DNA of 20,282 bases, from positions 1 through 20,282 of the forward strand of contig NZ_JBHSTI010000044.1 in the NCBI RefSeq assembly GCF_042660085.1, written 5' to 3'. The DNA is from Longivirga aurantiaca (GTDB taxonomy: Bacteria > Actinomycetota > Actinomycetes > S36-B12 > CAIYMF01). The stretch's first letter is position 1. Every line of letters starts with the position of its first letter. The position numbers were made by a program, and so were the translations under genes. Under the pieces are notes generated by a model. The model made no database searches, was not told the DNA's origin, and worked only from the letters and a program-made list of their open reading frames with translations. Below, piece by piece: positions 1 to 19,908 of this stretch.

Positions 1-92
1 ACCACGTCCAGCGACGGGTTCGTGCGACGCGCGGCCGACGCGGCCGACATACCGGCCGCGCCTCCGCCGATGACGACCATCCGCTCCGACAT
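1..92 (-). CDS. FAD-dependent pyridine nucleotide-disulfide oxidoreductase, first ~30 codons only (CoA-disulfide reductase / NADH oxidase-like); gene continues beyond the left edge
   Basis: Reverse-strand reading from ATG at 92 (alternative ATG at 80) gives MSERMVVIGGGAAGMSAASAARRTNPSLDVV. This is a beta-strand plus GxGxxG dinucleotide-binding motif at the extreme N-terminus, typical of CoADR/Nox-type flavoproteins. It is open-ended and so absent from the ORF track. Confidence 0.6.
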   Translation of the reverse strand, partial: MSERMVVIGGGAAGMSAASAARRTNPSLDV

Positions 93-258: not shown

Positions 259-447
259 TCAGCCGCACCCGCAGCCGCAGGTGGAACCGCCCGTGGTGAA
301 CGGGCCGCCCTCCTGGACGTCGATGGGTGCCGCATCACGGCTTCCGCACGCCGAGCAGATCCACACCGACGGCACGCGTGCACCCTCCATGACGAGGGAG
401 CGGAACGCGTGCCCGCAGGCGGGGCAGCTCAGCGTCCAGACCGCCAT
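259..447 (-). CDS. 62-aa zinc-ribbon protein with C-terminal CGCGCG tail (hypothetical)
   Basis: This is the C-terminal part of track ORF 259..1119. ATG at 447 lies 5 nt after the upstream TGA (453-455). Product: MAVWTLSCPACGHAFRSLVMEGARVPSVWICSACGSRDAAPIDVQEGGPFTTGGSTCGCGCG, with two CxxC pairs (zinc-ribbon pattern) and high third-position GC. Confidence 0.55.
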   Translation of the reverse strand: MAVWTLSCPACGHAFRSLVMEGARVPSVWICSACGSRDAAPIDVQEGGPFTTGGSTCGCGCG

Positions 448-452
448 CCCAA

Positions 453-1562
453 TCAGCCGCCGAGCTTCTTGCGGGCGAGCTCGGTGCCGGCCGCCAGCGC
501 GTGCAGCTTGTCGATGGCGATGTAGCGCTGGAGCAGGATCAGACCGCAGTCGGTCGTGACGCCCAGGCGCTCCGGCGGCACGTACTCCGCCAGGCGCATG
601 ATGCGGTCGCAGACCTCCTCGGCCGTCTCGGTGATCGTCGACTTCACGTCGATCACGCCGGCCCAGAACATCACGTTGTCCGGGAGCGGGTGCTCCTTGA
701 GCACGTCGAGTCCGGAGAGGTCGTCCGAGCGGCGCCCGCAGTTCTCGAGGTTGAGGACGTTGATGTTCGCCTCGTAGGACTTCGGCACCACGGACGAGGT
801 CGCCGTGGGGGCCGCGCCCTTGCGCTGGGTGAGGTCGAAGATCTCGCCCGACTCCGCCGTCTCGTCCGGGTAGTACGCCGGCGTACCGCCCCAGTTGCCC
901 CAGCAGACGTGCACGATGATCTGCGCGTTCTTGACGCCCTGGACGGCGCGGTTGAACGCCTCGATCGCCCAGTCCTCGTAGAAGTAGGGCCAGGTGAACT
1001 CGTCGAGCTGGATGAAGTCGATGCCCATCGCGTCGACCTCGAGGATGTCCTCGTTGATCGCCGCGGCCATCGCCATCGCCCGGTCGCGCGGGTTGTCGTA
1101 GTACAGGTCGTTGGTGCACTGGGCCAGCACCTGGATGCCCGTGTACTGGATCTTGGTCGGCTTGTTCGTCGCCTTCTTCAGCGCGCGGGCCTGCTCGACC
1201 ATGATCCCGCCGCGGCGCTTGATCTCCTGCGTCACGGTGCCGGCGTGCAGTCGGCTGTAGATGGGGAACCCGAGGTGGCCGCCCTTGAGGTCGTACCCCA
1301 GCCGCTTCATGTAGTAGTAGACCGCTGCGTCCGCGTAGTTGTCGCCGTGCAGACGACCGTCCGAGATGATGTCCAGCCCGGCGCTCTCCTGGTCGTGCGC
1401 GATCGACGAGATGGCGTCCTCGAACGCCTCGCGGATGAAGGCGTCCGGCGGCTCCTGGTCACCGCGCCAGTCGCGGGCGGGGCCTGCGTCCCACCACCGC
1501 GGGTTGGGGTAGTTCCCGACCATCGACGTCGGGATGAGGATCTCCTGGTCTCCGACTCTCAT
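453..1562 (-). CDS. etnE: Epoxyalkane:coenzyme M transferase (2-hydroxyalkyl-CoM lyase), MetE-like zinc enzyme
   Basis: Cobalamin-independent methionine-synthase-fold protein of about 369 aa with zinc-ligand motifs IIVHVCWGNWGG (H-x-C) and VTTDCGL. Overall similarity as I recall it to XecA/EtnE (MVGNYPNPRWW..., DIISDG, IQLDEFTWPYF). I chose ATG at 1562 because GAGGAG (1576-1571) sits 8 nt upstream. The track's GTG at 1571 overlaps that RBS. Confidence 0.88.
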   Translation of the reverse strand: MRVGDQEILIPTSMVGNYPNPRWWDAGPARDWRGDQEPPDAFIREAFEDAISSIAHDQESAGLDIISDGRLHGDNYADAAVYYYMKRLGYDLKGGHLGFPIYSRLHAGTVTQEIKRRGGIMVEQARALKKATNKPTKIQYTGIQVLAQCTNDLYYDNPRDRAMAMAAAINEDILEVDAMGIDFIQLDEFTWPYFYEDWAIEAFNRAVQGVKNAQIIVHVCWGNWGGTPAYYPDETAESGEIFDLTQRKGAAPTATSSVVPKSYEANINVLNLENCGRRSDDLSGLDVLKEHPLPDNVMFWAGVIDVKSTITETAEEVCDRIMRLAEYVPPERLGVTTDCGLILLQRYIAIDKLHALAAGTELARKKLGG

Positions 1563-1846
1563 TGCATGCACTCCTCGGTCTTTGCCGGACCGCCGCTCGG
1601 GCGTCTCGGGCGACTGGGGTGGGGCTGACGGTCCGGAGGGTGAGCAGGAGCTCCCGTTCGAGGTGACCGTCCGACCGGAACGTAGACCGCACAGGCATGC
1701 GTCAGCCGCGTGCGCACGGGCCAGAGTCCGGCGCGGATTTCGTCCTGCTGGGCCAGGACACCTGGGCAGGGGAGCGCGTGATACTCGCCCTGCCGCGACG
1801 CGGCTGCACCTCGGGCAGCCGCCGCACCGGGGTCGGAGGAGGACGC
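1563..1846. promoter_or_regulatory. Divergent intergenic control region between the transferase gene and comA
   Basis: 284 nt of non-coding spacer between two divergently oriented starts, so it must hold both promoters. No convincing -10/-35 or operator could be assigned by eye. Confidence 0.4.
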
Positions 1847-2701
1847 GTGTCGACGCAGATCGGTCCAGGGTTCCTCTCGCTCCCTCCTCGGTCCCACAAG
1901 CCGCGCGTCGACGGCCTCACGCACGTGCTCGACAAGGGCCTCTCGATGGTCGGCCTCGAGTCGCTGCTGGCAGCGGCGGGCGACTCGGTCGACATCATCA
2001 AGCTGGGGTGGGGCACGGCGTACGTGTCGGACGGCGTCAAGGCGAAGGTCCGCGTCGCGCGCGCGGCCGGGGTGCACATGTGCCCGGGCGGCACGCTCCT
2101 GGAGATCTGCGACCGGCAGGGCCGCGTCGAGGACTACGCGCGGTGGATGCACCGGCTCGGGATCACCCACGTCGAGGTCTCCAACGGTGCCCTCGGCATG
2201 GAGGCGTCGCACAAGCGCGAGCTCATCCGCCGGCTGGCGCAGGAGTTCACCGTGCTCTCCGAGTGCGGCTCCAAGGATCCCGGCGTCGATGTCGTCGCCG
2301 ACGCCTGGGTCGAGGAGATGTCCGGCGATCTCGAGGCGGGTGCGTCGTTGCTGATCGCGGAGGCGCGCGAGAGCGGCACCGTCGGCCTCTACGAGCCCAA
2401 CGGCGAGGTGCGGGCCGAGCTGGTCGAGGCGATCGTGACCGCGCTCCCGCCCGGGCTCGTGATCTTCGAGGCACCGCGCAAGGACCAGCAGGCGTGGTTC
2501 GTGCGCCGGCTCGGCGCGGTCGCCAACCTCGGCAACATCCCGACCGACGAGGTGATCGCTCTCGAGACCCTGCGCCTCGGCCTGCGGTCCGACACCCTCG
2601 ACCTGCTGCCCGACGTCCCCCTCGACCAGGGACCGACCTCACCCGGCATCCGGTCGGACAAGGCGACCCACCTCACCCACGCGAGGCCGGCGACCGCCTG
2701 A
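1847..2701 (+). CDS. comA: (2R)-phospho-3-sulfolactate synthase (ComA / XcbB-type), first step of CoM biosynthesis
   Basis: GTG at 1847 is preceded by GGAGGAGGA (1835-1843). Product contains LPPRSHKPRVDGLTHVLDKG, DIIKLGWGT, VEVSNG, EARESGT, FEAPRKDQQ and NLGNIPTDEVIALETLRLGLRSDT, which match ComA/YitD family blocks. The track ORF start at 1697 is rejected as an upstream extension. Confidence 0.9.
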   Translation: MSTQIGPGFLSLPPRSHKPRVDGLTHVLDKGLSMVGLESLLAAAGDSVDIIKLGWGTAYVSDGVKAKVRVARAAGVHMCPGGTLLEICDRQGRVEDYARWMHRLGITHVEVSNGALGMEASHKRELIRRLAQEFTVLSECGSKDPGVDVVADAWVEEMSGDLEAGASLLIAEARESGTVGLYEPNGEVRAELVEAIVTALPPGLVIFEAPRKDQQAWFVRRLGAVANLGNIPTDEVIALETLRLGLRSDTLDLLPDVPLDQGPTSPGIRSDKATHLTHARPATA

Positions 2702-2737
2702 TCCGGGCGGCTGACGGGCCCGTGCGCGACCGTCGGC

Positions 2738-3700
2738 TCAGACGGTGAACAGGGTCGGTGCGCCACCGCTCACGAGGAACACCACCGGGCCTTCGACGGC
2801 GCCGTCGCGCGCCCGGGCCAGCAGGCCGGCCATGGCCTTGGCCGCGAACACCGGGTCGAGGAACACGCCCTCGGTGCGGGCCACGAGCTCTGCGGCCTCG
2901 TCACCCTCGGGTGAGCGGACTCCCTTGGCGGGGCCGAGGAAGCCGTCGACGATGTTGACCTGCAGGTCGTCCGACGGTACGTCGATCAGCGCGCAGGCGT
3001 CGGCGGCGATCCGCCTGACGCGCTCCGCGCACTCCGTCGCCGGACGGCTGACCGTGACCCCCACGACCTCGTGGTCGAGCGCCAGCCAGGCCCGGCCCGC
3101 GACCAGGCCCGCCTGGGTGCCGCACGAACCCGTGGCGAGCCACAGCTGTCGCGGCTGCAGCCCGGCCTCGCGCACCTGCGCGTCGATCTCCGCCGTGGCC
3201 TGCACGTAGCCCAGGGCGCCGAGCCCGGTGGCCCCACCGCGGTGCACGCCGTACGGGGTGAGGCCTTCGGCCCGAAGCCGCTCGCACATGTCGTCGACGC
3301 CGCGATCGGCGGAGGCGCGGTCGTTGTCGCCGGTGAAGTGCAGGCGCGCACCGGCGAGCAGCGCGAGCGCGTGATTGCCCACGGGGCCCTCGCGGGGCGG
3401 GTCGCCGAAGCTCACGAGGGTGGAGCCGAGGCCGCGCGTGCGCGCCGCGAGCGCGGCGAGCATCGCCCAGTTGCTCTGCGGCCCCCCGGCCGTGACGAGA
3501 TGGTCGCAGCCCTGCGCCAACGCGTCGGCGAGCAGGTACTCCAGACCGCGCACCTTGTTGCCGCCGAGACCGAGGCCCGTCAGGTCGTCCCGCTTGAACC
3601 AGACCTCGACGCCGATCCGGTCGGACAGCCGGGGGGCCGGATGCAGCGGGGTGGGGAGGGTCGCGAGCCGGACTCGGGCGACGTCCGCGAGATCGGCCAT
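2738..3700 (-). CDS. PLP-dependent enzyme of the ACC deaminase / D-cysteine desulfhydrase family (XcbE-like, CoM biosynthesis)
   Basis: MADLADVARVRLATLPTPLHPAPRLSDRIGVEVWFKRDDLTGLGLGGNKVRGLEYLL... carries the GGNK PLP-lysine block and the SNW/TxGS-type motifs of fold-type II PLP enzymes. ATG at 3700 lies 2 nt after the upstream TGA (3703-3705). The 453-aa track version is an artefactual N-terminal extension. Confidence 0.85.
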   Translation of the reverse strand: MADLADVARVRLATLPTPLHPAPRLSDRIGVEVWFKRDDLTGLGLGGNKVRGLEYLLADALAQGCDHLVTAGGPQSNWAMLAALAARTRGLGSTLVSFGDPPREGPVGNHALALLAGARLHFTGDNDRASADRGVDDMCERLRAEGLTPYGVHRGGATGLGALGYVQATAEIDAQVREAGLQPRQLWLATGSCGTQAGLVAGRAWLALDHEVVGVTVSRPATECAERVRRIAADACALIDVPSDDLQVNIVDGFLGPAKGVRSPEGDEAAELVARTEGVFLDPVFAAKAMAGLLARARDGAVEGPVVFLVSGGAPTLFTV

Positions 3701-3702
3701 GG

Positions 3703-5061
3703 TCACCCCGTCGCGGCGTGCGGCGCGAGGACCCGATCGACGAACGCACCCGTGGCGCCCAGCGCGGCCCGAGGGTCGAGCGCGGCGGCGAGATCCTCCT
3801 CCGACAGCCCGGACGGCCCGACGAGACCCGCCTGCCGCAGCGCCGTCGCAAGATCCACCTGCTGCTCGACGCCGGCCATCGTCGCGGCGTACACCTGCTC
3901 GTGCGCGACGTGCTTGCCGAGGCGACCCGCGAGGAGCCGCATGACCGGCTCGGACATGGGATACCCGCGCTGCGCGTCGAGGTTGGCGCGCATGCGGGGC
4001 TCGTTCACCTGCAGCCCCTCGAGCAGGCGTCCGGCGAACGAGAGCGCAGCGCCGGTGAGGAGACAGGCTTCCGGCAGCCAGAGCCACTCCGCCTTCCACC
4101 CACGTCCGTCGCGCTCGTGCAGCGCCACGAGCCCCTCGAGCGCGGTGCCGGCGTCCGCACGGACGCAGCGCGCCAGCGTGTCGAGGTGCTCGGCCAGCTC
4201 GGGGTTCCGCTTGTGCGGCATGGTGATGCTGCCGACCTGGCCCGGGGTGAACGGCTCGGCCAGCTCACCGATCTCCGGCCGCTGCAGCTCGTAGATCTCG
4301 TTGCCGATCTTGCCGAGAGTCCCCGTGACCATGGCGAGGAGCGTCGCGAACTCCGCAAGCCGGTCCCGGGCCGTGAGCCACGGCATGTCCGGCACGCCGA
4401 GCCCGAGCTGGTAGGCGAAGTCGTCGAGGAGCCCCGGGCCCTGCTCGCCCCAGAACTCGAGGGTTCCGAGGGCACCTCCGAGCTGCGCGACCTGCAGGCG
4501 CGGGCGTGCCTCGGCCAGCCGGACGAGGTGGCGGTCGAGCTCTCCCACCCAGACGGCGGCCTTGTAGCCGAAGGTGATCGGCAGGCCCGGCTGGCCGTGG
4601 GTGCGCCCGCACATCAGGGTGTCGCGGTGCCGGCGTGCGAGGGCGACGGCGGCGTCGCGGCAACGGGCGACGTCGCGCTCGACGATGTCGAGGACGTCGC
4701 GCATGACGAGCGCGAACCAGGTGTCGGTCACATCCTGGACGGTGGGGCCGACGTAGACCCACTCCGCGCACGACGGCGGCAGGACGTCGCGCAGCACGCG
4801 GATCAGCCCGAGCGTGGAGTGCCCGGTGGCCCGGGTCTCGGCGGCCACCCGCTCGAGGTCGAGCAGCTCCACGCGTGCGTGCCGGGCGATCTCCTCGGCC
4901 GCCTCGGCCGGGACGATCCCGTGCGCGGCCTGCGCCCGCGCGAGCGCCACGAGGATGTCGAGCCACCGCGCCGTGCGCCCCTCGTCGTCGAGCAGGGCCC
5001 GGACCTCGTCGGTCGACCAGAGGTGACGGTAGACGGCGGAGTCCGGGGGCAGCGCCGTCAT
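3703..5061 (-). CDS. Aspartase/fumarase-superfamily lyase, adenylosuccinate lyase / carboxymuconate cycloisomerase-like (XcbC-like candidate)
   Basis: 452 aa with the superfamily signature GSITMPHKRNP and typical N-terminal helices (VYRHLWSTDEVRALL...LDILVALARAQAAHGIVP). ATG at 5061 overlaps the upstream stop as ATGA (5058-5061). Confidence 0.85.
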   Translation of the reverse strand: MTALPPDSAVYRHLWSTDEVRALLDDEGRTARWLDILVALARAQAAHGIVPAEAAEEIARHARVELLDLERVAAETRATGHSTLGLIRVLRDVLPPSCAEWVYVGPTVQDVTDTWFALVMRDVLDIVERDVARCRDAAVALARRHRDTLMCGRTHGQPGLPITFGYKAAVWVGELDRHLVRLAEARPRLQVAQLGGALGTLEFWGEQGPGLLDDFAYQLGLGVPDMPWLTARDRLAEFATLLAMVTGTLGKIGNEIYELQRPEIGELAEPFTPGQVGSITMPHKRNPELAEHLDTLARCVRADAGTALEGLVALHERDGRGWKAEWLWLPEACLLTGAALSFAGRLLEGLQVNEPRMRANLDAQRGYPMSEPVMRLLAGRLGKHVAHEQVYAATMAGVEQQVDLATALRQAGLVGPSGLSEEDLAAALDPRAALGATGAFVDRVLAPHAATG

Positions 5062-6017
5062 CGGCGGCCCCCCTCCAGCACGGGGTCGACGGTCGACGGG
5101 CCCGCAGCCGAGGGCGAGACGCCCTGCACGGCCTCGGGCGCCAGCGGCAGCAGCATGTGCCGCAGACCCTCGCGCACCTCGTCCAGGTTCGTGCCCCAGG
5201 GCACGACCGCGCGGGTGGCGTCGACCTCCAGCCCGCGTTCGATGAGGCAGCACTTCGAGAGGGTGAGCTCGCCCGGTGCCGCGGGCTCGGCCTCGGCGCG
5301 CTTGCGGGGGCAGAGCTCGACGCGCGGCGGCTCGTCGCCGTAGAAGTGCCGGTGGAACTGCAGCGAGCGCTCGCAGCCGATGAGGGTCCAGTCGCCGCGC
5401 TCTGCCGGCCGGGTGTCGAGGAACGAGACGGGAGCGCCGAGCTCGGTGCCCGAACCGCGGCACGGCAGGAGGTACCCGGCAGCGGGGTTGGCCGCCGCGA
5501 GGTCGTGCACGTCGACGGCGTCGAGCACGAGGTTCACCGGTGGCAGGTCCTCGTCGTAGGCGATCACCTGCTGCGCCTGCGCGAAGAGCTTGGGCGGGTA
5601 GGGCGGCACGACCTCGGTGACCCTGACCGTGATGGGGGCGGGCTCCCAGAGGAAGTTGACGTGCTCGAACCGGCCGAGCACCACGGTCACCCGAGCACCG
5701 GGGACCGCTGCGGCAGCCAGCGACGTCGCGTTGCCGACGTCGGTCTCCGGGCTCTCGACCCAGGCCGTCTCGTCCGGTCCGGCGAGCAGCCGGGCCTCGA
5801 CCACGGGCGAGAACAGCGGCTCCAGGCTCTCCTTGCGCACGGCTACGAGCGCCGTGGCGCCGTGGGACCGCAGCGCGAGGTAGTCGGTGCGCCGGTACAC
5901 CTCGCGGCCGAGGAGGTAGTCGAGCACGGCCTCCTCGGTCAGCGGGAAGTCGACCTCCTGGACCGACAGCCCGCGGTAGGGGTTCGCCCGGGTGTTCGGT
6001 GCAGGCGTGGGGATCAC
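5058..6017 (-). CDS. Hypothetical 319-aa protein, Cys-rich C-terminal half, no family recognised
   Basis: GTG at 6017 is preceded by AGGAG, which overlaps the upstream TAG stop (TAGGAGCCCTCGTG). The stop overlaps the next start (ATGA). Composition is plausible and third-position GC is high. Five Cys (C186, C215, C236, C256, C257) and HRH (222-224) fall within about 70 residues. Confidence 0.7.
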   Translation of the reverse strand: MIPTPAPNTRANPYRGLSVQEVDFPLTEEAVLDYLLGREVYRRTDYLALRSHGATALVAVRKESLEPLFSPVVEARLLAGPDETAWVESPETDVGNATSLAAAAVPGARVTVVLGRFEHVNFLWEPAPITVRVTEVVPPYPPKLFAQAQQVIAYDEDLPPVNLVLDAVDVHDLAAANPAAGYLLPCRGSGTELGAPVSFLDTRPAERGDWTLIGCERSLQFHRHFYGDEPPRVELCPRKRAEAEPAAPGELTLSKCCLIERGLEVDATRAVVPWGTNLDEVREGLRHMLLPLAPEAVQGVSPSAAGPSTVDPVLEGGRR

Positions 6018-6025
6018 GAGGGCTC

Positions 6026-7603
6026 CTAGAGGTTGCGGAGGTTGGCGTTCCCCGCCCGCAGGCGCGACAGCTGGACGAAGTGCTCGGGGTTGAGGAACAG
6101 CTCGTTCATCCACCCCAGTGTGTCGATGGTGAGCCCTTCAGGACGGTGGATCAGGTAGTCGAGGTACTGGAACGCGTCCTTGGCGCCGTACCCGACGTGG
6201 TGGGCGCCGAGCACCTTGCGGCTGTCGCCGTCGACGACGAGCTTCTGGAAGCCCGACAGCTCCGGCTTGCTGAACGCGTAGAGCATCGTCCCCTCGGCGC
6301 AGGGCAGCGGCAGGTTCTCGGTGTCGAGGTCCTTCACGGTCGGCGGCATCTGGATGATGATGACGTCGTCGTAGACCTCGCGGGCCTCGGCCTCGGTGAG
6401 CCCGACCCACGAGACCTCGTACGTCGTGTGCAGCGAGTCCGGGTACTCCGTGAAGTCGAACTCGAGGTCCTCGCCCATGATGTTGCGCGCTGCGGTGACG
6501 CCGCTCTTGCGCGCCTTGAACATCTCCATCGGCCCGTCGATCATGTCGCCGATCGCGTAGACGCCCGGCACCGACGACTGCATCCGGTGGTTGACCACGA
6601 CGCGGCCGACGTCGTTCACCTGGATCCCGAGGGCCTCCTGCGCCTGCTGCACCAGCGGACGCTCGCCCGTGCCGAGGAAGACGAAGTCGGTCGGGAGGTC
6701 GACCTCCTCGCCGGTCTCGAGGCGAACCGTGACGCTCGTGACGTGGCCGTCCTCCCCGTTGACCTGGACGGGGTGGGTGCCCTCGAGGATCGTCATGCCG
6801 CGCTTGCGCATGCCGCCGACGACGTACTGGCGCAGGTCCTCGTCGATGTGGTGGAGGCTCTTGGTGCGCATGAGCGGGGAGCGCGACACGATCGTGGTCG
6901 TGCAGCCGGTCGCGTGGAAGAAGGCGCCGTACTCCATCGCCACCTTGCTGCCGCCGATGATGACGCAGGTCTTCGGCTCGTAGTCGAGCTCCTCGACCAG
7001 GGTCACGAAGTCGTGCACGCCCGCCAGATCGAGACCGGGGATGTCGGGCCACACCGGACGTGCGCCCATGCCCAGGACGAGGTTGCGGGCCTTGAACGTG
7101 CGACCCGCAGCGGTGACGGTCGTCGCGTCGACGATCGTGGCGTGCGCGTTGAGCACGTACTCGACGTCGAGCTGCTCCTTGGTCTGCCAGTTCATGAACG
7201 CGTGCGCCGAGCCGCGTCCGGCGCGGAACAGGTTGATGAGGTCGAGGATGCGGGCCCGGTCGGCGTCGAACTTGGGGAAGAAGAGCTCGTCGGAGAACCA
7301 CCGCATCCGGTCGAGCTCCTCGGCGGCCTCGGAGAACAGGTGGTGCGGCACGCAGGCCTGGTGCGGGCACGAGCCGCCGAGGAACGGCCACGCGTCGATG
7401 ATCAGCGGGCGTCCGCCCATCGCCTTCATGTACGCCGCGCCGAAGCGCCCCCCGGCGCCGCCGCCGATGAAGATCGCGTCGTACTCGACCTCGCTGCCGT
7501 CGTCGACGAGGTTGAGGATCGGCTCCGACGACGGGTCGGTCATCGCGTCGTCGATCAGTTCGATCCACTCGCCAAGGTTCGGGTGCTGGTGGCGGATGTC
7601 CAC
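6026..7603 (-). CDS. xecC: 2-oxopropyl-CoM reductase (carboxylating), 2-KPCC-type NADPH:disulfide oxidoreductase
   Basis: 525 aa. FAD fold YDAIFIGGGAGGRFGAAY. Redox disulfide GGSCPHQACVPHH (Cys79/Cys84, nt 7352-7369). C-terminal ELFLNPEHF has Phe503/His508 where ordinary disulfide reductases have the His-x4-Glu dyad, which is the 2-KPCC hallmark. End-to-end resemblance to the Xanthobacter enzyme as I recall it (MEMFKARKSG, GFQKLVVD, HHVGYGAKDAFQYL, LSRLRAG). GTG at 7603 has GGAAGGA 8 nt upstream. Confidence 0.9.
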   Translation of the reverse strand: MDIRHQHPNLGEWIELIDDAMTDPSSEPILNLVDDGSEVEYDAIFIGGGAGGRFGAAYMKAMGGRPLIIDAWPFLGGSCPHQACVPHHLFSEAAEELDRMRWFSDELFFPKFDADRARILDLINLFRAGRGSAHAFMNWQTKEQLDVEYVLNAHATIVDATTVTAAGRTFKARNLVLGMGARPVWPDIPGLDLAGVHDFVTLVEELDYEPKTCVIIGGSKVAMEYGAFFHATGCTTTIVSRSPLMRTKSLHHIDEDLRQYVVGGMRKRGMTILEGTHPVQVNGEDGHVTSVTVRLETGEEVDLPTDFVFLGTGERPLVQQAQEALGIQVNDVGRVVVNHRMQSSVPGVYAIGDMIDGPMEMFKARKSGVTAARNIMGEDLEFDFTEYPDSLHTTYEVSWVGLTEAEAREVYDDVIIIQMPPTVKDLDTENLPLPCAEGTMLYAFSKPELSGFQKLVVDGDSRKVLGAHHVGYGAKDAFQYLDYLIHRPEGLTIDTLGWMNELFLNPEHFVQLSRLRAGNANLRNL

Positions 7604-7607
7604 GGGC

Positions 7608-9149
7608 TCAGTCCTTCCGGTCCGGGTCGTGCACGGGGTGTTCGGGTGTGCCGGTCGTCCCGGCGGTCTGGGGGGTGGCCTGCGCACCGTCGCGGGCGAT
7701 GCGGACCAGCTCGACCTCGACGGTCGCCAGCCGCGAACGCTGGTCCTGGGCCGCCGCGAGCCGGTCCGCGGCCGCACGGCCGAAGCGGTCGGCCATGTCG
7801 CCGACGGTGGCGGGGGCGGCACCGCCGATGCCGGTGCGCGTGGCCACGATCGAGACCGGGTCGACCACGTCCGCGAGCTCCTCGGGCGCGATGCCGAGGG
7901 GTGCGCCGAGCACCGCGGTGGCAGCGGCGTCGAGGCGCGCGGCGGTGATGTCGCGGCCCGTCCCGCCGTCGGCGGCCGTCGCGCGCACGGCGTGCGCGAC
8001 GACCTCGTAGGCGCTGCGATAGTCGAGGCCGCGCGTGCTCATCACGTGCTCCGCGATGTCGGTGGCCTGCGTGAACGACGCGTTCAGCGCGCGGCTCATG
8101 GCGGCCTCGTCTGCGCGCAGCCCGCCGACCACGCCGGTCATGAGCCGGGTCGCCAACGTGGCCCTCGACAGGGCCCGCGGCACCTCGCCGTACGCCACGA
8201 TGAGCCCGTCGCTGCGGGCCGACGGGGTTCGGCTCGTGGCCAGCAGACCCGTGAGCCTCCCGATGAGGACGCCGGCATGGGCGCGGACCATGCCGAGCGC
8301 ATAGGGGTTGCGCTTCTGCGGCATCATCACGCTGCTGCGGGCGTGGCCGTCGGCCAGCTCGACCCAGGCGAACTCGTCGCTGGCCCAGATCTCGAGGTCC
8401 TCCGCCAGCTTGCTGAGCGAGACCACGAGGCTCGTCGCGGCGGAGACCGCAGCGACGAGACCGTCCGTCTGCCACATCGCATCGCGGGTGTGCTCGAGCA
8501 CCCGGTCGAAGCCGAGCAGCTCGGCGGCGCGGCCGCGGTCGTAGCCGAGGCGGCCACCGTTCGTGCTGCCCACCCCGGCCGGGCTGCCTCCGAGCAGGTC
8601 CAGCTCGGCGAGGAGCCGCTGGAGGTCGCGCTCGACCGGCGGCACGAACGCCAGCAGGTAGTGGCCGAAGGTCGAGGGCTGGGCGTGCTGCAGATAGGTC
8701 TGGTCGGCAAGGTACGTGGTGGCGTAGCGCCCCGCGGCCTCGCTCGTGGCGGCACAGAATCCGGCTGCCGCCTCGACGAGGTCGAGCACGTCCTGGCGCA
8801 GTCTCAGCCGCACCGCGACGCGCACGGCCTCTCGTCGCGTGCGCGCCACGTGCAGCCAGCCCGCATCCTCGCCGATCTGCTGCGCGAAGCGTCGCTCGCG
8901 GCAGTTGTAGAGCTCGCCGTTGACGGGGTCGTAGCCGAACGCCTCGGCCGGCACGGCGTCGGCCTCCACCAGCACGTCGACGAGCCGGGCCGCCGCCGCC
9001 GCGGGCACCAGGCCCTGCTCGCGCAGCACGACGACGTGCGCGAGGTCGGCCACGTTGAGCCAGTGGTGCAGCAGCGGGGCGTCGTCCACCTCGAGGGCGA
9101 ACCCGGCCTCGACCAGCTCGGGGGCGTAGGACCCCAGCGGCTTCTTCAT
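7608..9149 (-). CDS. Aspartase/fumarase-superfamily lyase, argininosuccinate lyase-like (XcbD-like candidate)
   Basis: 513 aa with signature SSVMMPQKRNP and ArgH-like blocks (TYLQHAQPSTFGHYL, GSPAGVGSTNG). Start at ATG 9149 (MKKPLGSY...). This is the first gene of the five-gene minus-strand operon. It has an unusual Thr/Pro/Gly-rich C-terminal tail. Confidence 0.82.
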   Translation of the reverse strand: MKKPLGSYAPELVEAGFALEVDDAPLLHHWLNVADLAHVVVLREQGLVPAAAAARLVDVLVEADAVPAEAFGYDPVNGELYNCRERRFAQQIGEDAGWLHVARTRREAVRVAVRLRLRQDVLDLVEAAAGFCAATSEAAGRYATTYLADQTYLQHAQPSTFGHYLLAFVPPVERDLQRLLAELDLLGGSPAGVGSTNGGRLGYDRGRAAELLGFDRVLEHTRDAMWQTDGLVAAVSAATSLVVSLSKLAEDLEIWASDEFAWVELADGHARSSVMMPQKRNPYALGMVRAHAGVLIGRLTGLLATSRTPSARSDGLIVAYGEVPRALSRATLATRLMTGVVGGLRADEAAMSRALNASFTQATDIAEHVMSTRGLDYRSAYEVVAHAVRATAADGGTGRDITAARLDAAATAVLGAPLGIAPEELADVVDPVSIVATRTGIGGAAPATVGDMADRFGRAAADRLAAAQDQRSRLATVEVELVRIARDGAQATPQTAGTTGTPEHPVHDPDRKD

Positions 9150-9420
9150 CGTCCGGGACCGCCTCGTCGCGTGCGGGAGCGCGGCCCGGCGCACCGGGGG
9201 ACGAGCGTCGAGGCAGCCGAGGCGCCCGGCGACGCAGGAGCGCTCCGCACGCACTCAGGATCACGATCGCGCCGCTCGGATGGCATGTCCCGACGAGACG
9301 AAGATCCCGCCCCCTCCTGTACGCAGGGGACGTGTGACCGACGAGCCGGCAGGCGCCATCGTTGGCTGGCGGCCAGACCCCTCCACCGGACCGGCTCGTG
9401 GCCACGACCGAGGAGGAACG
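9150..9420. promoter_or_regulatory. Divergent intergenic control region between the five-gene operon and the MDR reductase gene
   Basis: 271-nt spacer between divergent starts at 9149 (-) and 9421 (+). It contains no credible ORF. The function is inferred from gene geometry only. Confidence 0.4.
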
Positions 9421-10407
9421 ATGCCCGACGGCACGATGCTCGCAGCGCTCTACCGCGGAACCGGCCCGGCTGCCGAGGTGCTCGAGGTCGTCGAGGTCGC
9501 GCGCCCGGACCCCGGACCGGGTGAGGTGCGCGTCCGGGTCGCGGTGTCGGGCATCAACCCCACGGACGTGAAGAACCGCGCGGGGATCATGACCTGGCCG
9601 ATCGACGGCTTCCAGGTGCCCCACCACGACGGCGCCGGCACCATCGACGCGGTCGGACCGGGTGTGGATCCGGGACGGATCGGCGAGCAGGTCTGGCTGA
9701 TGATGTCCGCCCACGGCAACGCGTGGGGGACGGCGGCCCAGTGGTGCGTCGTCCCTGAGTGGAAGGCGCGGCGGCTGCCGCCCGACACCGATCCGCTGCT
9801 CGGCGCCACCCTCGGCGTGCCTGCCGTGACGGCGGCGTACGCCCTCACGGCCGACGGGTCGGTCGAGGGCCGCGACGTACTGGTGCACGGCGGCGCCGGC
9901 GCGGTGGGCCGATGCGGGATCGAGCTCGGCCGGTGGGCCGGTGCGCGGGTGATCACCACGGTGAGCAGCGAGGCCAAGGCCGAGGTCGCGAGGACCGCAG
10001 GTGCGGACCTCGTCGTCGACTACCGGACCGAGGACGTCGTCGCCGCGGTGCGCGGGTTCTCAGCCGGTGTGCACCGTGTGGTCGAGGTGTCCTTGGCGGC
10101 CAACGCCGCGATCGACACCGAGGTCTGCGCCCAGGACGCGGTCGTCGTCGTCTTCGCCACCGATGGCGGTGAGGCGGTGCTGCCCGTGCGTCCGTCGTTG
10201 CTGAAGAGCCTGTCCTTCCGCTTCATCCTTCTCTACAACCTCGACCGCGAGGCCCTCGAGCTGGCGTCGGGTGTGGTCGAGCGCGCGCTGGACGATCGGG
10301 CGCTGACCCTCCCTCCGATCACCCGGTTCGCGCTCGAGGACATCGCCGCGGCGCACCAGCTGCAGGAGAGCGGGCCGTTCGGACGCGTGCTCCTCGACAT
10401 CCCCTGA
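9421..10407 (+). CDS. NAD(P)H-dependent medium-chain reductase, quinone oxidoreductase / zeta-crystallin type (no catalytic-zinc ligands)
   Basis: ATG at 9421 follows GAGGAGGAA (9410-9418). Product: GEVRVRVAVSGINPTDVKNRAG, VLVHGGAGAVGRCGIELGRWAGARVITT (cofactor fold), GRVLLDIP C-terminus. The track start at 9280 is rejected. Confidence 0.85.
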   Translation: MPDGTMLAALYRGTGPAAEVLEVVEVARPDPGPGEVRVRVAVSGINPTDVKNRAGIMTWPIDGFQVPHHDGAGTIDAVGPGVDPGRIGEQVWLMMSAHGNAWGTAAQWCVVPEWKARRLPPDTDPLLGATLGVPAVTAAYALTADGSVEGRDVLVHGGAGAVGRCGIELGRWAGARVITTVSSEAKAEVARTAGADLVVDYRTEDVVAAVRGFSAGVHRVVEVSLAANAAIDTEVCAQDAVVVVFATDGGEAVLPVRPSLLKSLSFRFILLYNLDREALELASGVVERALDDRALTLPPITRFALEDIAAAHQLQESGPFGRVLLDIP

Positions 10408-10417: not shown

Positions 10418-11626
10418 CTACCCGCCGATGCGTCCGGCGATGATGCTCGTGATCACGACCGAGGTGATGGTGACGGTCGAGAAGCCGGCGACGATCATCT
10501 TGGGCAGGATCTGGCCCTCGATGGCCGCGACCTCCTCGGGGGTCTCGCCGGCTCCGCGCGCTGCCTCCTGCGACAGGATCATCGTGCCGGGGAAGCCGTA
10601 GAGGCTCGTGAGCCCGATCGCGACCGACATCGGGACGCTGTAGCCGAGCGTCTTGCCGACCAGCGCCGAGAAGCCGGCGATGCCGACGAGGCCGAAGGTG
10701 AAGGCGAGCAGCAGCGGGAGCGCGAGCTCGGTGACGTCGGACGGCTGGATCGTGGCCAGCGGACCGAACACCAGGATCATGATCGCGATCATCATGAGCC
10801 CGAGGGAGTCGATGCCGCCGAGCACCGACGGCTTGAAGACGCCGAGGGTTCGCAGCGCGACGCCCAGGACCAGGGCGACGACGAACGTGTTGAGCGTGCC
10901 GTTCGTGAGGTTGTTGATGCCGAGGCTGACGAGCACAGCGATGCCGACGACGAGCAGCGTGCCCGCGGTGGTGCGCAGGGCGGGAGGCAGGATCGTCCTG
11001 GGTTCGCCGCCGTCCTCCGTCGCCTCCTCGGGCACGACGAGGTTGCCGGCGCGGTACTCGCCCTTCAGCCGGTTCGCCTCGCGCTTGAGGATGATCGAGG
11101 TGAGCGGGAAGCCGATGAGGCCCTGCAGGGCGGCGATGAGCACGGGGAAGATCGCGATGCTCGTGAGCCCGACGCCGAGCGCAGCCTCCTGGATGATGAG
11201 CACCGAGATCGCACCGCCGCTGAGCGAGCCCGTGCCGGCGATGACGAAGTCGAGGGCCTGCGCGTAGCCGTCCTCGGCGGCGCCGCTGATGCGGCCGCCG
11301 AAGAGGAGGGCGGCGACGTACAGCATGATGCCGATGCCGAGGACCGTCGCGACGCCGACGAGGAACGTCTTCCACTGCTTGATGAAGTCGTCGAGGCTGA
11401 TCATCGTGCCGAGGTGCACGATGATGAACCCGACCACCACGCCCGCCAGGGCGAGCAGCGATGACGCCTGCAGCAGGTCCTCGGGGAAGATCCCGGTCAG
11501 GAAGCCGACCAGGAAGATCATCGACGCGACGAACAGCGACGACAGCAGCGACTTCGTCTTCTTGGCGACGAGGTCGCTGACCGTCCACACGGCCATGACG
11601 ACGACGAAAGCGAGCACCGGGTTCAT
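10418..11626 (-). CDS. Polytopic membrane permease (about 402 aa, two hydrophobic halves joined by a charged linker), family not recognised
   Basis: ATG at 11626 with GGAGG 4 nt upstream. The sequence is almost entirely hydrophobic helices (MNPVLAFVVVMAVWTVSDL...GFSTVTITSVVITSIIAGRIGG) with a central hydrophilic loop (KREANRLKGEYRAGNLVVPEEATEDGGEPR). The 718-aa track ORF is an extension over non-coding and antisense sequence. Confidence 0.8.
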   Translation of the reverse strand: MNPVLAFVVVMAVWTVSDLVAKKTKSLLSSLFVASMIFLVGFLTGIFPEDLLQASSLLALAGVVVGFIIVHLGTMISLDDFIKQWKTFLVGVATVLGIGIMLYVAALLFGGRISGAAEDGYAQALDFVIAGTGSLSGGAISVLIIQEAALGVGLTSIAIFPVLIAALQGLIGFPLTSIILKREANRLKGEYRAGNLVVPEEATEDGGEPRTILPPALRTTAGTLLVVGIAVLVSLGINNLTNGTLNTFVVALVLGVALRTLGVFKPSVLGGIDSLGLMMIAIMILVFGPLATIQPSDVTELALPLLLAFTFGLVGIAGFSALVGKTLGYSVPMSVAIGLTSLYGFPGTMILSQEAARGAGETPEEVAAIEGQILPKMIVAGFSTVTITSVVITSIIAGRIGG

Positions 11627-11722: not shown

Positions 11723-14065
11723 ATGAGATTGATTGAGTACGACGCCACCGACCTGACTCCGGAGGCATGGCGATCGGGTGGTGACGCTCGCGCGTTCAAC
11801 CCGACGATCGCCGAGATCGATGGCGGCTACGTGATCGCCTACCGCGTCGTCCAGGTCGACTCCGACCACCGTCGTATCGCCACCGCACGGCTCGACAGCG
11901 ACCTCGCGCTCGTGCCCGGCAGCGTCGTTGCTCTCTCCGACGAGATCACCTTCGCCGACCCGCACCTCCCCGAGCGCTCGCGGGAGTGGCACGCCGATCC
12001 CATGTTCCTGCGCCTCAAGGGGCGCCTCTACCTCCTCTGGAACGACGGCAACACGCGCCCGTTCAACCACCAGTTCCTCGCCGAGATGACCGACGACGGC
12101 CAGCACGTCGCGGCACCGGCTCGCGAGCTGACGACGGCCGACCGCCGCGAGGTCGAGAAGAACTGGGCCCTGTTCGAGTCCGACGGCGAGGTGTACCTGA
12201 GCTACACCTACCGCCCCCACCGCGTGCTGCGCGTCGACCTGGACACGACCGAGCCGACCCTCGTCGCGACCCCGGCGTACACGAGCGACTTCCCCACCGA
12301 GTACGAGCGGATCTTCGGTGTGGTGCACGGCGGCTCGCAGCCGGTGCGCGTCGGCGACACCTTCGTCACCATGGCGCACTCGAGCTTCTCGCTCCCCGAG
12401 GGCCGGGTCTACCGCGGTGTGCTCGTGGAGTTCGAGGCCACGGCGCCCTTCCGCGTGCGCCGCATGTCCAAGGCGCCGTTCGACCTGCCGAACGCCGCCG
12501 GTGCCGAGTTCAAGCACGACAAGCTGAACCCGAACGTCCACGAGGTCATCTACCCGCGCGGCCTGGTGCGTCACGGTGACGAGTGGATCGTGGCCTACGG
12601 GCTCAACGACGAGGAGTGCGCGATCGCGGTGGTGCCCGCCGCCGCGTTCGCCAGCAGCTTCGGGCCGAAGGTGTCGACGTCGTACACCCTGGGCGCCGAG
12701 GACGTCACCCTGTCGCGGCTCCGGCGCGCGCCCGCGGTGAAGACCGACGGCCGCCAGCTGCCGGTCTTCTGGTTCGACGCGAAGGGTCGGCTCTTCGACA
12801 CCTTCGTCGGCGGCCGACGGTTCGCGACGGGCAACTTCGGCGACATCGCCTCACGTCAGATCGCCGAGCAGCTCTCCGGCGTCCAGGCCCGCACCGCCCT
12901 CCCCGGGGAGCCGCGTCTGCTCGCGATCGGCTCGGTGCTCCACCGTGCGCACGACGGCGACGTCGTCTGGGGCTCGGGCGTCAAGGGCGAGAAGGACCCG
13001 CTGCCCGAGGGCATCGACCTCGATGTGCGCGCCGTGCGCGGCCCGCTCTCGCTCGAGTACCTGCAGCAGTCCGGCGTGAACACCGACCGCGTCACGCACA
13101 CCTTCGACCCGGGTGTGCTCTTCCCGCACCTGTACGCCGCAGAGCTCGCGAAGAGCCCCTCGCGCGGCGGCGACCGGATCATCCCGCACTACCACGACGA
13201 CCTCGAGATGCGTCGCCGTCTCCCGGCGTATTCCGAGTCCTTCGTCTCGGTCGACTGCACGCCGCTGGACATGATGCGTGCGATCAAGGGCGCCGACCGC
13301 GTCTTCTCGAGCTCGCTGCACGGCGTGATCTTCGCCGAGGCGATGGGCATCCCGGCGTACTGGCTGGCGCCGGTCGGCGGGGAGAACGAGCTCAAGTACT
13401 ACGACTACTACTACGGCACCGGCCGCAGGGACGTGAAGCGGTTCGAGTCGCTCGAGGACGCCATGGCCTCCGAGCCGATGCCCCTCCCGACCTTCGACAT
13501 TGAGGGCTACCTCAGCACGTTCCCGCACGACCAGGTGGCGCGGCTGGCGTCCACGTCGGTGAGCCCGGGGCAGCGCTTCGACCTCCGCAACTGGACCGGG
13601 CTGCGCCTCAACACATTCTTCGCGCTCGAGGGCTTCGACCTGCGTGACAGCAGCGGTGTCTGGATGACCTCCACGCGCGCGGCCATCGGCACGGTGGTGC
13701 GTGCCGAGCCCGGCGATCAGGTGGCCATCACCCTCGCCTTCACCCCGACCGACCGCCGGGCCCTGGCCGACTCGCTGAGCCTGCGGGCGCAGGCGAACGG
13801 CGGGCCGGTGCAGGTCGTCCGCTGGCGCAGCGGAGGCACCGGGCGCGTCGAGGTCACGCTCGCGTTCACGGCCACCGCCAAGGACACGCCCGTCCAGCTC
13901 GACCTCGAGCTCGAGGACGGCGGCCCGGTCTCGCGCCGTGGCCCCCGCGACGCCAGGCGACTGGCGCGCAAGGTGCTCCCGTCGGCGATCGCGCCGGCGT
14001 ACCGCGGCGGTCTGCTGTCGTGGGTGCGCGTCTCGTCGGTCCCGCGCGGGAGCCGTCCGGCGTAG
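11723..14065 (+). CDS. Three-domain cell-envelope glycan modification protein: N-terminal propeller-like glycosidase/phosphorylase-type domain, central polysaccharide pyruvyl transferase domain, C-terminal beta-rich domain
   Basis: 780 aa.
- Central part (about aa 340-590): GNFGDIASRQI, IGSVLHRAHDGDVVWGSGVKG, VFSSSLHGVIFAEAMGIPAYWL, matching the CsaB/WcaK-type pyruvyl transferase pattern.
- N-terminal part: AFNPTIAEIDGGYVIAYRVV, ADPMFLRLKGRLYLLWNDG, EKNWALFESDGEVYLSY, resembling DUF377/GH130-like propeller repeats (tentative).
- C-terminal about 180 aa: unassigned. Confidence 0.75.
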   Translation: MRLIEYDATDLTPEAWRSGGDARAFNPTIAEIDGGYVIAYRVVQVDSDHRRIATARLDSDLALVPGSVVALSDEITFADPHLPERSREWHADPMFLRLKGRLYLLWNDGNTRPFNHQFLAEMTDDGQHVAAPARELTTADRREVEKNWALFESDGEVYLSYTYRPHRVLRVDLDTTEPTLVATPAYTSDFPTEYERIFGVVHGGSQPVRVGDTFVTMAHSSFSLPEGRVYRGVLVEFEATAPFRVRRMSKAPFDLPNAAGAEFKHDKLNPNVHEVIYPRGLVRHGDEWIVAYGLNDEECAIAVVPAAAFASSFGPKVSTSYTLGAEDVTLSRLRRAPAVKTDGRQLPVFWFDAKGRLFDTFVGGRRFATGNFGDIASRQIAEQLSGVQARTALPGEPRLLAIGSVLHRAHDGDVVWGSGVKGEKDPLPEGIDLDVRAVRGPLSLEYLQQSGVNTDRVTHTFDPGVLFPHLYAAELAKSPSRGGDRIIPHYHDDLEMRRRLPAYSESFVSVDCTPLDMMRAIKGADRVFSSSLHGVIFAEAMGIPAYWLAPVGGENELKYYDYYYGTGRRDVKRFESLEDAMASEPMPLPTFDIEGYLSTFPHDQVARLASTSVSPGQRFDLRNWTGLRLNTFFALEGFDLRDSSGVWMTSTRAAIGTVVRAEPGDQVAITLAFTPTDRRALADSLSLRAQANGGPVQVVRWRSGGTGRVEVTLAFTATAKDTPVQLDLELEDGGPVSRRGPRDARRLARKVLPSAIAPAYRGGLLSWVRVSSVPRGSRPA

Positions 14066-14079
14066 AGCCTGCGGGGAGG

Positions 14080-14097
14080 CCGGAGCCTCGGCTCCGG
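14080..14097. terminator. Short GC hairpin between convergent genes (possible bidirectional terminator)
   Basis: CCGGAGC (14080-14086) pairs with GCTCCGG (14091-14097), loop CTCG. It sits in the 44-nt gap between stops at 14065 (+) and 14110 (-). There is no U-tract. Confidence 0.3.
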
Positions 14098-14109
14098 GCT
14101 ACCGGTGCG

Positions 14110-18498: not shown

Positions 18499-18969
18499 GT
18501 GTGCGACGGGTTCCGAAGAGTGTGGACATGGTTCCTGCTCCTGACGGTCTCGGCAGTGCTGCGGCGCCCCTTGCTCGTGGGGCTGACGGGAACGACTCTC
18601 CTCAGCCAGCGCGTGCGGCACCGTGGCCGCGGCGACCGTCGTACCGTCGTCGTGCTGACAGAGGTCACCGCCGCTGCACCGTGCGGGCAGGTCCGGCTCG
18701 TGGACGTCGACGGCTCGGTGCTGACCGGGCCTGCCGCCGGCGAGCTGGAGGTGTCGGTCGACGGCGTGCATCGGGCCGAGGGCATCGGGGGCTCCGTGAG
18801 ACGAAGCAAGCCGATCGACCGCGGGTCGTCGAGGGAATGCACGTCGACAGTCCACTCGTGGCGGTACCCCTCCGGCCCTCTCTCGCATCGACGAGAGGCG
18901 GCAGTGGAGTGCTCATGGCGCCAGCGCGGGTGGGACACTGATGGTGCAACCCGGATTCACGGGAGGTGA
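18499..18969 (+). CDS. Hypothetical protein with one N-terminal hydrophobic helix (weak call)
   Basis: GTG at 18499 lies 5 nt after GCGAGGA. GNN-rich codons appear in the first two thirds (TVVVLTEVTAAAPCGQVRLVDVDGSVLTGPAAGELEVSVDG). Its TGA (18967-18969) overlaps the GGGAGGTGA RBS of the next gene. The antisense ORF 18495..18938 shares the same GC3 phase, so codon bias cannot discriminate between them. Confidence 0.3.
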   Translation: MCDGFRRVWTWFLLLTVSAVLRRPLLVGLTGTTLLSQRVRHRGRGDRRTVVVLTEVTAAAPCGQVRLVDVDGSVLTGPAAGELEVSVDGVHRAEGIGGSVRRSKPIDRGSSRECTSTVHSWRYPSGPLSHRREAAVECSWRQRGWDTDGATRIHGR

Positions 18970-18974
18970 GTTCG

Positions 18975-19361
18975 ATGACGACACCTGCCATGCCGGCTGG
19001 GGCCACACCGACGCGGCACCAGAGCCAGCCACGCCGACGCTCCACCACCCTTACCTGGTGGTCGCTGGCGATGATCCCTGCCTCTGTGGTCAGCGCGGTC
19101 CTTGCCTTCGTCCTCGGAGCCGTGCTGATGGCCGCCACGGGAACACCGGAGGGCGCGCTGCTGACCTCGGCAGGACTTGAGGGATGGCTCGCGTGGTTCG
19201 CGGTGCTGCTGACGTTCCTGTCCGCCCCGGTCGCGGGCGTCGTGCTCGCGGTCCTCGCGCGGCGCTCTGGTGGTGGCGGACGGGCCATCCTTGCCCTCGT
19301 GGTCAACGGCTGCATCGCGGCGTACTTCGTGGTCAGCGCTGTCGGGAACCTGTTCCTGTAG
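18975..19361 (+). CDS. Small integral membrane protein (128 aa, about 3 TM helices), hypothetical
   Basis: ATG at 18975 lies 8 nt after GGGAGG (18961-18966). After a basic N-terminus (PRRRSTTLTWW) come three hydrophobic stretches (AMIPASVVSAVLAFVLGAVLMAA, WLAWFAVLLTFLSAPVAGVVLAVLA, AILALVVNGCIAAYFVVSAVG). Confidence 0.55.
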   Translation: MTTPAMPAGATPTRHQSQPRRRSTTLTWWSLAMIPASVVSAVLAFVLGAVLMAATGTPEGALLTSAGLEGWLAWFAVLLTFLSAPVAGVVLAVLARRSGGGGRAILALVVNGCIAAYFVVSAVGNLFL

Positions 19362-19896: not shown

Positions 19897-19908
19897 ACGA
19901 GGCGAGGC

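Follow-up and report, generated by a model that had tools for sequence, protein, structure and literature searches.

Does the genome of Longivirga aurantiaca, a cultured species of the Sporichthyaceae (Actinomycetota), encode the enzymes needed to make coenzyme M (CoM) and to use it in the conversion of short-chain epoxides? The question is raised by a 20,282-bp contig of this species, analysed here over its whole length and referred to as the window. In bacteria, CoM metabolism is characterised for just a few alkene degraders, and there the genes lie mostly on plasmids. On the evidence of protein families, catalytic residues and synteny, the region 259-10407 very probably represents most of a gene cluster for the synthesis and use of CoM. 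The finding places a complete CoM-biosynthesis set, together with the main catabolic enzymes, in a cultured member of the Sporichthyaceae whose deposited annotation does not identify the pathway. As the strain is available, the predictions of CoM production and of the use of epoxypropane or propene, by growth or by consumption, are open to direct test.

The G+C content of the window is 71.5%, so that raw lists of open reading frames (ORFs) are full of spurious overlapping frames. The gene model was based on a plot of G+C by codon position (GC3 for the third position), with inspection of start codons and ribosome-binding sites (RBS), and is identical to independent gene calls on Logan contigs. 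Deposited NCBI proteins of L. aurantiaca are identical to eight of the nine modelled products, the exception being a membrane protein at 10418-11626. None of the nine ORFs is disrupted or truncated, their GC3 values of 0.88-0.94 resemble those of the flanking genes, and by base composition the cluster is not distinguishable from its flanks. The family matches in 259-10407 are full-length, with E-values between 1e-20 and 1e-214, and chance is no concern as their source.

The bacterial CoM pathway comprises five steps, performed by XcbB, XcbC, XcbD, XcbE and XcbA, which lead from phosphoenolpyruvate, sulfite and cysteine to CoM (Wu et al. 2022, PMC9457059). As all five known Xcb genes are matched here, the window holds the whole known CoM-biosynthesis set; (i) XcbB/ComA phosphosulfolactate synthase (1847-2701, plus strand, 284 aa), with 270 bits to Pfam ComA (cut-off 25) and 55% identity to XcbB of Nocardioides sp. 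JS614, 36% to that of Xanthobacter autotrophicus Py2; (ii) an XcbC-like phosphosulfolactate phosphate-lyase of the aspartase/fumarase superfamily (7608-9149, minus strand, 513 aa), which carries SSVMMPQKRNP, finds its best NCBIfam family in CoM_syn_XcbC (NF052535) and is 47% identical to JS614 XcbC, an assignment to which its recurrent position beside 2-KPCC lends support; (iii) XcbD, a 3-sulfopropionyl-cysteine synthase of the same superfamily (3703-5061, minus strand, 452 aa), which carries GSITMPHKRNP and scores 713 bits with CoM_syn_XcbD (NF052536), over the cut-off of 600; (iv) an XcbE-like pyridoxal-phosphate (PLP) enzyme of the ACC-deaminase/D-cysteine desulfhydrase family (2738-3700, minus strand, 320 aa, Pfam PALP), for which CoM_syn_XcbE (NF052537) is the best NCBIfam family, ahead of CuyA (244 bits) and D-cysteine desulfhydrase (233 bits), with 58% identity to JS614 XcbE and a conserved operon position; (v) XcbA (5058-6017, minus strand, 319 aa), the predicted final reductase, with 412 bits to its NCBIfam family (NF052538, cut-off 150) and 287 bits to Pfam DUF7714 (PF24830), in which all five cysteines are invariant among six homologues. 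By homology to Py2, XcbB would join sulfite to phosphoenolpyruvate, giving phosphosulfolactate, from which XcbC would eliminate phosphate to leave sulfoacrylate. Addition of L-cysteine by XcbD would give 3-sulfopropionyl-cysteine, the PLP-dependent XcbE would convert this to sulfoethanethioaldehyde, and XcbA, a [2Fe-2S] protein in Py2, would reduce the latter to CoM.

On the catabolic side, the MetE-like protein encoded at 453-1562 (minus strand, 369 aa) belongs to Pfam PF01717 (Meth_synt_2, 71.5 bits) and is 76% identical to Py2 XecA, the epoxyalkane:CoM transferase (EaCoMT), against 47-49% to EtnE of JS614 and of Mycolicibacterium chubuense NBB4. Its His218, Cys220 and Cys339 align with the zinc ligands His218, Cys220 and Cys341 of XecA (His-x-Cys...Cys). 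This motif is common to all MetE-like paralogues and does not discriminate among them by itself. A neighbour-joining tree of 42 MetE-like sequences (100 bootstraps) places the window protein in the EaCoMT clade, which has 99% support, and, within it, in the XecA subclade (100%). The gene is, by its sequence, that of an XecA-type EaCoMT with predicted 2-hydroxypropyl-CoM lyase activity. As a zinc enzyme it would add CoM to a short-chain epoxide, most likely epoxypropane, to form 2-hydroxypropyl-CoM. Five nucleotides past its stop codon starts a small cysteine-rich ORF (262-447, minus strand, 61 aa) with the pattern CPxCG...CSxCG...CGCGCG, which resembles Py2 XecB (Xaut_4866; 59% identity over 37 aa, E = 1e-13, tblastn) and occupies the equivalent position in related loci; it matches no Pfam or NCBIfam family.

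The flavoprotein encoded at 6026-7603 (minus strand, 525 aa) corresponds to 2-KPCC, the last enzyme of the epoxide pathway. Its alignment with the crystallised enzyme of Py2 (PDB 1MO9, 582 bits) spans the full length; it shares 53% identity with Py2 XecC and 65-66% with the JS614 homologue, and has the Pfam domains Pyr_redox_2 and Pyr_redox_dim. The redox-active Cys-x4-Cys is kept as Cys82/Cys87 (Py2 numbering) in the motif CPHQAC, and FLNPEH aligns with FLNPTH of Py2, so that Phe501 and His506 are kept as well. Altogether Arg56, Cys82, His84, Cys87, His137, Met140, Arg365, Phe501, His506 and Gln509 are all conserved; Arg56, His84, His137 and Met140 are presumably CoM-binding or active-site residues. 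The FLNPxH motif, a Phe-His dyad, takes the place of the His-Glu dyad usual in disulfide reductases and has been linked to carboxylation, and Arg365 is among the residues for handling the CoM sulfonate and the enolate (PMC8358701). The protein can be regarded as a true 2-KPCC with all hallmark residues, predicted to cleave the thioether of 2-ketopropyl-CoM with NADPH and to carboxylate the enolate, yielding acetoacetate and regenerated CoM.

A sequence-only reading made earlier on this DNA had proposed that the locus can make CoM and run at least the first and last steps of epoxide conversion, and the family matches, the EaCoMT clade and the 2-KPCC residues point the same way. The six gene products that it listed in 259-10407 are all present and intact, including the peptides GSITMPHKRNP and SSVMMPQKRNP. 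Its ComA homologue and its PLP enzyme of the ACC-deaminase family are borne out by the Pfam ComA and PALP matches, the latter with XcbE as best NCBIfam family, and its attribution of the two lyases to the CoM pathway by best models that are XcbD and XcbC rather than PurB and ArgH. The phylogeny that it had proposed as a check on EaCoMT membership agrees with its assignment of the MetE-like protein, and so does the identity to XecA; the 2-KPCC-specific active site that it had seen in the flavoprotein is likewise there. Its list was incomplete: the XecB-like ORF and a quinone-reductase-like gene at 9421-10407 were omitted, as was XcbA, so that the CoM set given as XcbB-E holds for four genes and lacks the fifth.

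The left end of the window is no cluster boundary, since the contig breaks inside the next cluster gene, a flavoprotein resembling CoA-disulfide reductase (CoADR), of which the first ~16 codons are present (1-50, minus strand). A Logan metagenome contig of the same population, L004, is 99.4% identical to the window over 5843 bp and extends 1467 bp further left. Its positions 5794-7310 hold the complete CoADR-like gene (421 aa), followed by the first 85 aa of an XecD-type short-chain dehydrogenase/reductase (SDR). The CoADR-like protein has the Pfam domains Pyr_redox_2 and Pyr_redox_dim and reaches 356 bits with the NCBIfam CoA-disulfide reductase model, under its cut-off of 579; the SDR N-terminus is 84% identical to the XecD-type SDR of L062, the closest genome locus. 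The broken gene and its continuation on L004 indicate that the published assembly splits the cluster across contigs. In about 20 related genomes, the CoADR-like gene, the XecD- and XecE-type dehydrogenases and a CoA transferase are next in line. Where the relatives' sequence continues, it encodes an XecD-like SDR (54-58% identity), an XecE-like SDR (48-52%) and a two-subunit CoA transferase. The relatives' XecD-type SDR keeps the Ser/Tyr/Lys triad together with Arg152 and Arg196, which we take to be the ligands of the CoM sulfonate. For S-HPCDH, the presumed sulfonate ligands Arg211 and Lys214 had no counterpart in the XecE alignment at these numbers and were dropped; the representative P0001, with an EaCoMT 93% identical to that of the window, was tried as a stand-in for the missing flank and set aside for its different gene arrangement. 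Genes for the dehydrogenase steps probably follow directly beyond the end of the contig, and the full pathway is probably encoded as well, on the evidence of L004 and the related genomes. The two SDR dehydrogenases would then oxidise 2-hydroxypropyl-CoM to 2-ketopropyl-CoM, the substrate of 2-KPCC, and the CoA transferase would activate the acetoacetate.

The eight genes of the cluster belong to four or more transcription units, which lie on both strands. The genes xcbC, 2-KPCC, xcbA, xcbD and xcbE, in this order, are separated by gaps of at most 8 nt or overlap, the xcbE start (3700) lying 3 nt downstream of the xcbD stop codon (3703-3705), and on this layout they are one translationally coupled five-gene operon. 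The xcbB gene, on the opposite strand, is a unit of its own that converges with xcbE and diverges from the EaCoMT gene. EaCoMT and xecB constitute a separate unit that probably includes the CoADR-like gene, whose start lies ~210 nt downstream. Divergent from xcbC is a gene for an NADPH:quinone-reductase-like protein of the medium-chain dehydrogenase/reductase (MDR) family (9421-10407, plus strand, 328 aa, Pfam ADH_N and ADH_zinc_N). The sequence-only reading had described a single operon with interleaved biosynthetic and catabolic genes and called this organisation unusual. The single operon gives way to the units just listed. The interleaving is real, in that 2-KPCC stands between xcbC and xcbA, and the arrangement is indeed unusual beside the characterised strains Py2, JS614 and NBB4, but not among relatives, where the co-directional xcbC-2KPCC pair recurs in 23 other loci. 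In an alignment of six loci, the 284-bp intergenic region between EaCoMT and xcbB (1563-1846) shows invariant blocks GAGTATC, TGGCC, GGACGAA and part of CGCACGCGG, as well as an invariant RBS, GACCGAGGAG; these blocks are candidate promoter or operator elements.

The relatives were found by a scan with the 2-KPCC protein against one representative genome per species, which returned 65 loci. Nearly all belong to Actinomycetota (Kineosporia, Pseudonocardia, Actinomycetospora, Thermocrispum, Haloechinothrix and metagenome-assembled genomes (MAGs) of Sporichthyaceae), and several lie on contigs of 1-5 Mb. The full order of the window, xcbC-2KPCC-xcbA-xcbD-xcbE with xcbB on the opposite strand and EaCoMT-xecB-CoADR, recurs in seven other loci. 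The 23 loci that share the xcbC-2KPCC pair with the window each come from the representative genome of a different species, almost all actinomycetes. Such recurrence indicates that 2-KPCC inside the xcb operon is a variant layout common in this actinomycete lineage. DNA homology to the closest loci, L062 (~86%) and L008 (~80%), stops exactly at 10407/10408, where the conserved block ends on the right. The MDR gene is part of this block, being 78-81% identical and equivalently placed in both, and the two loci carry a CysH/PAPS-reductase gene (PAPS, 3'-phosphoadenosine-5'-phosphosulfate) between xcbC and the MDR gene (7408-8187 in L062). A gene for an F420-dependent luciferase-like monooxygenase (LLM), recognised by the TIGR03564 model, lies near xcbC or 2-KPCC in about 25 scanned loci (for example L017 3253-4227 and L066 7528-8487) and also on the JS614 plasmid; L073 has it at 36069-37004. 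In L062 (MFD09730.bin.2.34) the ORFs of EaCoMT, 2-KPCC, XcbD and XcbE are fragmented, and these breaks look like frameshift errors of MAG assembly rather than real pseudogenes.

Several observations weigh against the reading of this locus as a working CoM cluster. Three scores fall below curated cut-offs, namely those of XcbB with TIGR03849 (246 bits, archaeal cut-off 280), of the XcbC-like protein with NF052535 (420 bits, cut-off 575) and of the XcbE-like protein with NF052537 (325 bits, cut-off 450). The 20,282-bp contig contains neither XecD/XecE-type dehydrogenases nor an alkene monooxygenase gene of the soluble di-iron type (SDIMO), and no regulator gene and no F420-dependent LLM gene occur in the window. 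Between xcbC and the MDR gene there is only a 271-bp spacer (9150-9420) without a PAPS-reductase gene, and a local gene for sulfite supply appears to have been lost. A rival interpretation would follow the deposited PGAP names, which apart from phosphosulfolactate synthase are generic ('cobalamin-independent methionine synthase II family', 'lyase family protein', 'FAD-dependent oxidoreductase'), and would see chance neighbours among housekeeping paralogues (MetE, PurB, ArgH, lipoamide dehydrogenase, D-cysteine desulfhydrase); the sub-threshold scores of XcbC and XcbE would suit it. Its probability is negligible, as the housekeeping models score far lower and all under their own cut-offs (purB 274 against 326 bits on XcbD, argH 248 against 280 on XcbC, lipoamide dehydrogenase 164 against 409 on 2-KPCC), XcbA and XcbD exceed their curated cut-offs, the Phe-His dyad specific to 2-KPCC is present, and dozens of genomes, along with the Py2, JS614 and NBB4 plasmids, carry these genes together. 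The NCBIfam scores, active-site residues, EaCoMT tree and synteny together refute a PurB, ArgH, MetE or lipoamide dehydrogenase identity. The missing PAPS-reductase, LLM and regulator genes could also mean that the cluster is a decaying remnant no longer in use. This is very unlikely in view of the nine full-length ORFs with flank-like GC3, the conserved catalytic residues, and undisrupted near-identical copies (99.4-99.5%) in at least two independent sequencing runs (SRR36426638 and SRR22388094).

If the reading of a functional CoM cluster is retained, its substrate and the source of the epoxide have to be considered. A C3 substrate is the most likely one, and this assignment has two supports, XecA-clade membership and the paired SDRs of relatives, a narrow base that also counts against the reading as proposed. 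C2 substrates (ethene, vinyl chloride, epoxyethane) are used by Nocardioides JS614 and Mycolicibacterium; the Xcb set and 2-KPCC of the window are closer to the JS614 proteins (47-65% identity) than to those of Py2 (35-52%), and the CoADR-like gene and CoA-transferase pair resemble accessory genes of etn clusters. A location of EaCoMT within an epoxide-carboxylase set is, however, the propylene-type layout (PMC6440738). The EaCoMT itself sides with XecA rather than EtnE, and only chiral substrates such as epoxypropane call for a pair of XecD-like and XecE-like SDRs, as found in the relatives, so that a C2 role in place of propene or epoxypropane is unlikely. EaCoMTs accept C2-C4 epoxides, and the two substrate classes are consequently not mutually exclusive. 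It is possible, though doubtful, that the cluster works in an organism lacking an alkene monooxygenase, and serves detoxification or scavenging of epoxides released by neighbours or formed through co-oxidation by an unrelated oxygenase. The window lacks an SDIMO, and the closest relatives of the same gene order (L062, L066, L012, L061 and L054) showed none at distances of up to 10 kb from the cluster. No Longivirga-named protein occurs among the top 120 group-4 SDIMO alpha-subunit clusters or the ten clusters opened, in a search that covered group 4 through cluster representatives and sparse names, not the rest of the L. aurantiaca genome. There is a precedent in the methanotroph Methylohalobius crimeensis, whose CoM epoxide cluster has no alkene monooxygenase and for which epoxide detoxification or scavenging has been proposed (PMC11507031). 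On the other hand, a group-4 alkene monooxygenase with the order beta-coupling-alpha stands beside the cluster in the related Kineosporiaceae MAG L017 (71-2997), and another is close to 2-KPCC in L015, an unclassified Actinomycetota MAG (1885-4738).

The alpha subunit of the L017 monooxygenase, which served as the query of the protein-database search, shares 63-65% identity with its counterparts in PE-TB08W and Mycobacterium M156, two propene degraders, and the L017 locus thus links this cluster to alkene oxidation. Whereas a review of 2025 arrived at just 22 group-4 SDIMO sequences, the search made here gave well over 100 clusters at 46% identity or more among the matches listed.

The locus is a further member of the known Xec/Xcb system, whose biochemistry itself is not new, and its distinguishing features are the variant gene order and the newly identified cultured host. 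In Py2 (plasmid pXAUT01, xecABCDE and xcbA-E) as in the window, catabolic and biosynthetic genes are neighbours. However, the Py2 genes follow the order xamo, xecA-B-C-D-E, xcbB-C-D-E and are all co-directional, whereas the window has 2-KPCC inserted between xcbC and xcbA, xcbB by itself on the opposite strand and EaCoMT as the first gene of another unit. The Xcb proteins of the window are only 35-47% identical to the Py2 xcb1 copies beside xec, XcbA giving a partial match of 55%. Py2 also has an adjacent Xamo monooxygenase, which the window lacks. In contrast to the Py2 plasmid, the contig, from an actinomycete host, bears no plasmid or mobile-element genes.

The etn/xcb clusters of JS614 (pNOCA01) and NBB4 also come from Actinomycetota, and their Xcb proteins and 2-KPCC are the closest homologues from characterised strains (47-65% identity). 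There too, genes for a CoADR-like flavoprotein, an SDR and a CoA transferase accompany EaCoMT. These clusters differ from the window in that their EaCoMT is of the EtnE type and directly beside etnABCD, xcbB-A-D-E-C are contiguous, 2-KPCC is ~8 kb away with one SDR, and the location is on plasmids. They further possess MEDS/HTH regulators, a PAPS reductase, an F420-dependent LLM and an acyl-CoA ligase, none of which is present in the window. The window proteins are thus a mosaic, with EaCoMT nearest to Py2 and the Xcb proteins and 2-KPCC nearest to JS614. The idea that the window is a copy of a known catabolic plasmid was rejected, as only the 2-KPCC gene matched at the DNA level (megablast, 75-76% to JS614 and NBB4).

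The most similar clusters are those of Kineosporia sp. R_H_3 and A_224, MAGs of Kineosporiaceae and Microflora Danica MAGs of Actinomycetota (L062, L066, L010, L012, L017 and L061), which have the gene order of the window followed by the two SDR genes, at protein identities of 70-94%. Most of them differ in having a TIGR03564 LLM upstream of xcbC and a second, non-EaCoMT MetE-like gene beside xcbB. In the literature searched, there was no experimental work on clusters of this Kineosporia type and no link between Longivirga and CoM.

Beyond the 2-KPCC scan, XecA-type EaCoMT homologues with 74-93% identity occur in metagenomes and in several phyla, with at least 120 clusters among the matches listed (604 hits, E ≤ 1e-60). 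One of them, on the 58-kb ENA contig NODE_27 (L076), is 93% identical to the EaCoMT of the window and stands in another layout: xcbC, 2-KPCC (reversed), aldehyde dehydrogenase, MEDS and HTH_30 regulators, a rhodanese-like protein, a molybdopterin oxidoreductase and EaCoMT. Such an arrangement indicates that the modules are evidently shuffled freely between genomes. Other Sporichthyaceae MAGs have a different version of the system, with an EtnE-like EaCoMT, a group-4 SDIMO and a 2-KPCC only 61-63% identical, which fits horizontal acquisition. The earlier statement that CoM use in bacteria is rare and usually borne on plasmids or islands does not hold well for this lineage, where the relatives' cluster lies on Mb-scale contigs. 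The pathway looks less rare than stated, and much commoner in soil and freshwater bacteria than the isolate literature implies.

Tentatively, and with a low probability, L. aurantiaca and the many related soil and freshwater actinomycetes with a chromosomal XecA-type cluster might form an unrecognised, widespread guild that employs CoM in the assimilation of trace short-chain alkenes or epoxides (such as propene and ethylene). Some members may do so without a dedicated alkene monooxygenase, and the MetE-like paralogues and the F420-dependent LLM beside 2-KPCC in relatives may extend CoM chemistry to undescribed substrates.

Several families of MetE-like paralogues outside the EaCoMT clade, 26-35% identical to the EaCoMT of the window, adjoin 2-KPCC or xcbB in related loci (L013, L016, L018, L064, L017 at 13420-14505, L061 at 14899-15987 and others), with up to four per locus; they may be thiol alkyltransferases. 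Homologues of 2-KPCC with 75-83% identity also exist without any Xec or Xcb gene within 10 kb (L011, L019, L021, L025, L039 and L041-L046). Their neighbours, as judged from sequence without a family-model scan, are an aldehyde dehydrogenase, a putative regulator or a large, probably molybdopterin-type, oxidoreductase.

Scans of the window for Rfam families, tRNAs and sigma-70 promoters or terminators gave nothing useful, the promoter model being ill-suited to high-GC actinomycetes. Directly outside the conserved block, on the minus strand, lies the gene of the polytopic membrane protein already mentioned (10418-11626, 402 aa), which has no Pfam or NCBIfam match and is not syntenic in L062 or L008. 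The remaining genes are unrelated to the cluster and encode a pyruvyl-transferase/GH43 protein, an AT3-SGNH acyltransferase, an MpaB-family protein and a homoserine-dehydrogenase-like protein. From 18.4 to 19.8 kb, GC3 gives only a weak signal. A small membrane protein of 140 aa is encoded at 18942-19361 (plus strand); the reading frame that starts at 19843 (19843-20280, plus strand) is cut off by the right contig end, and its product has a hydrophobic stretch at the N-terminus.

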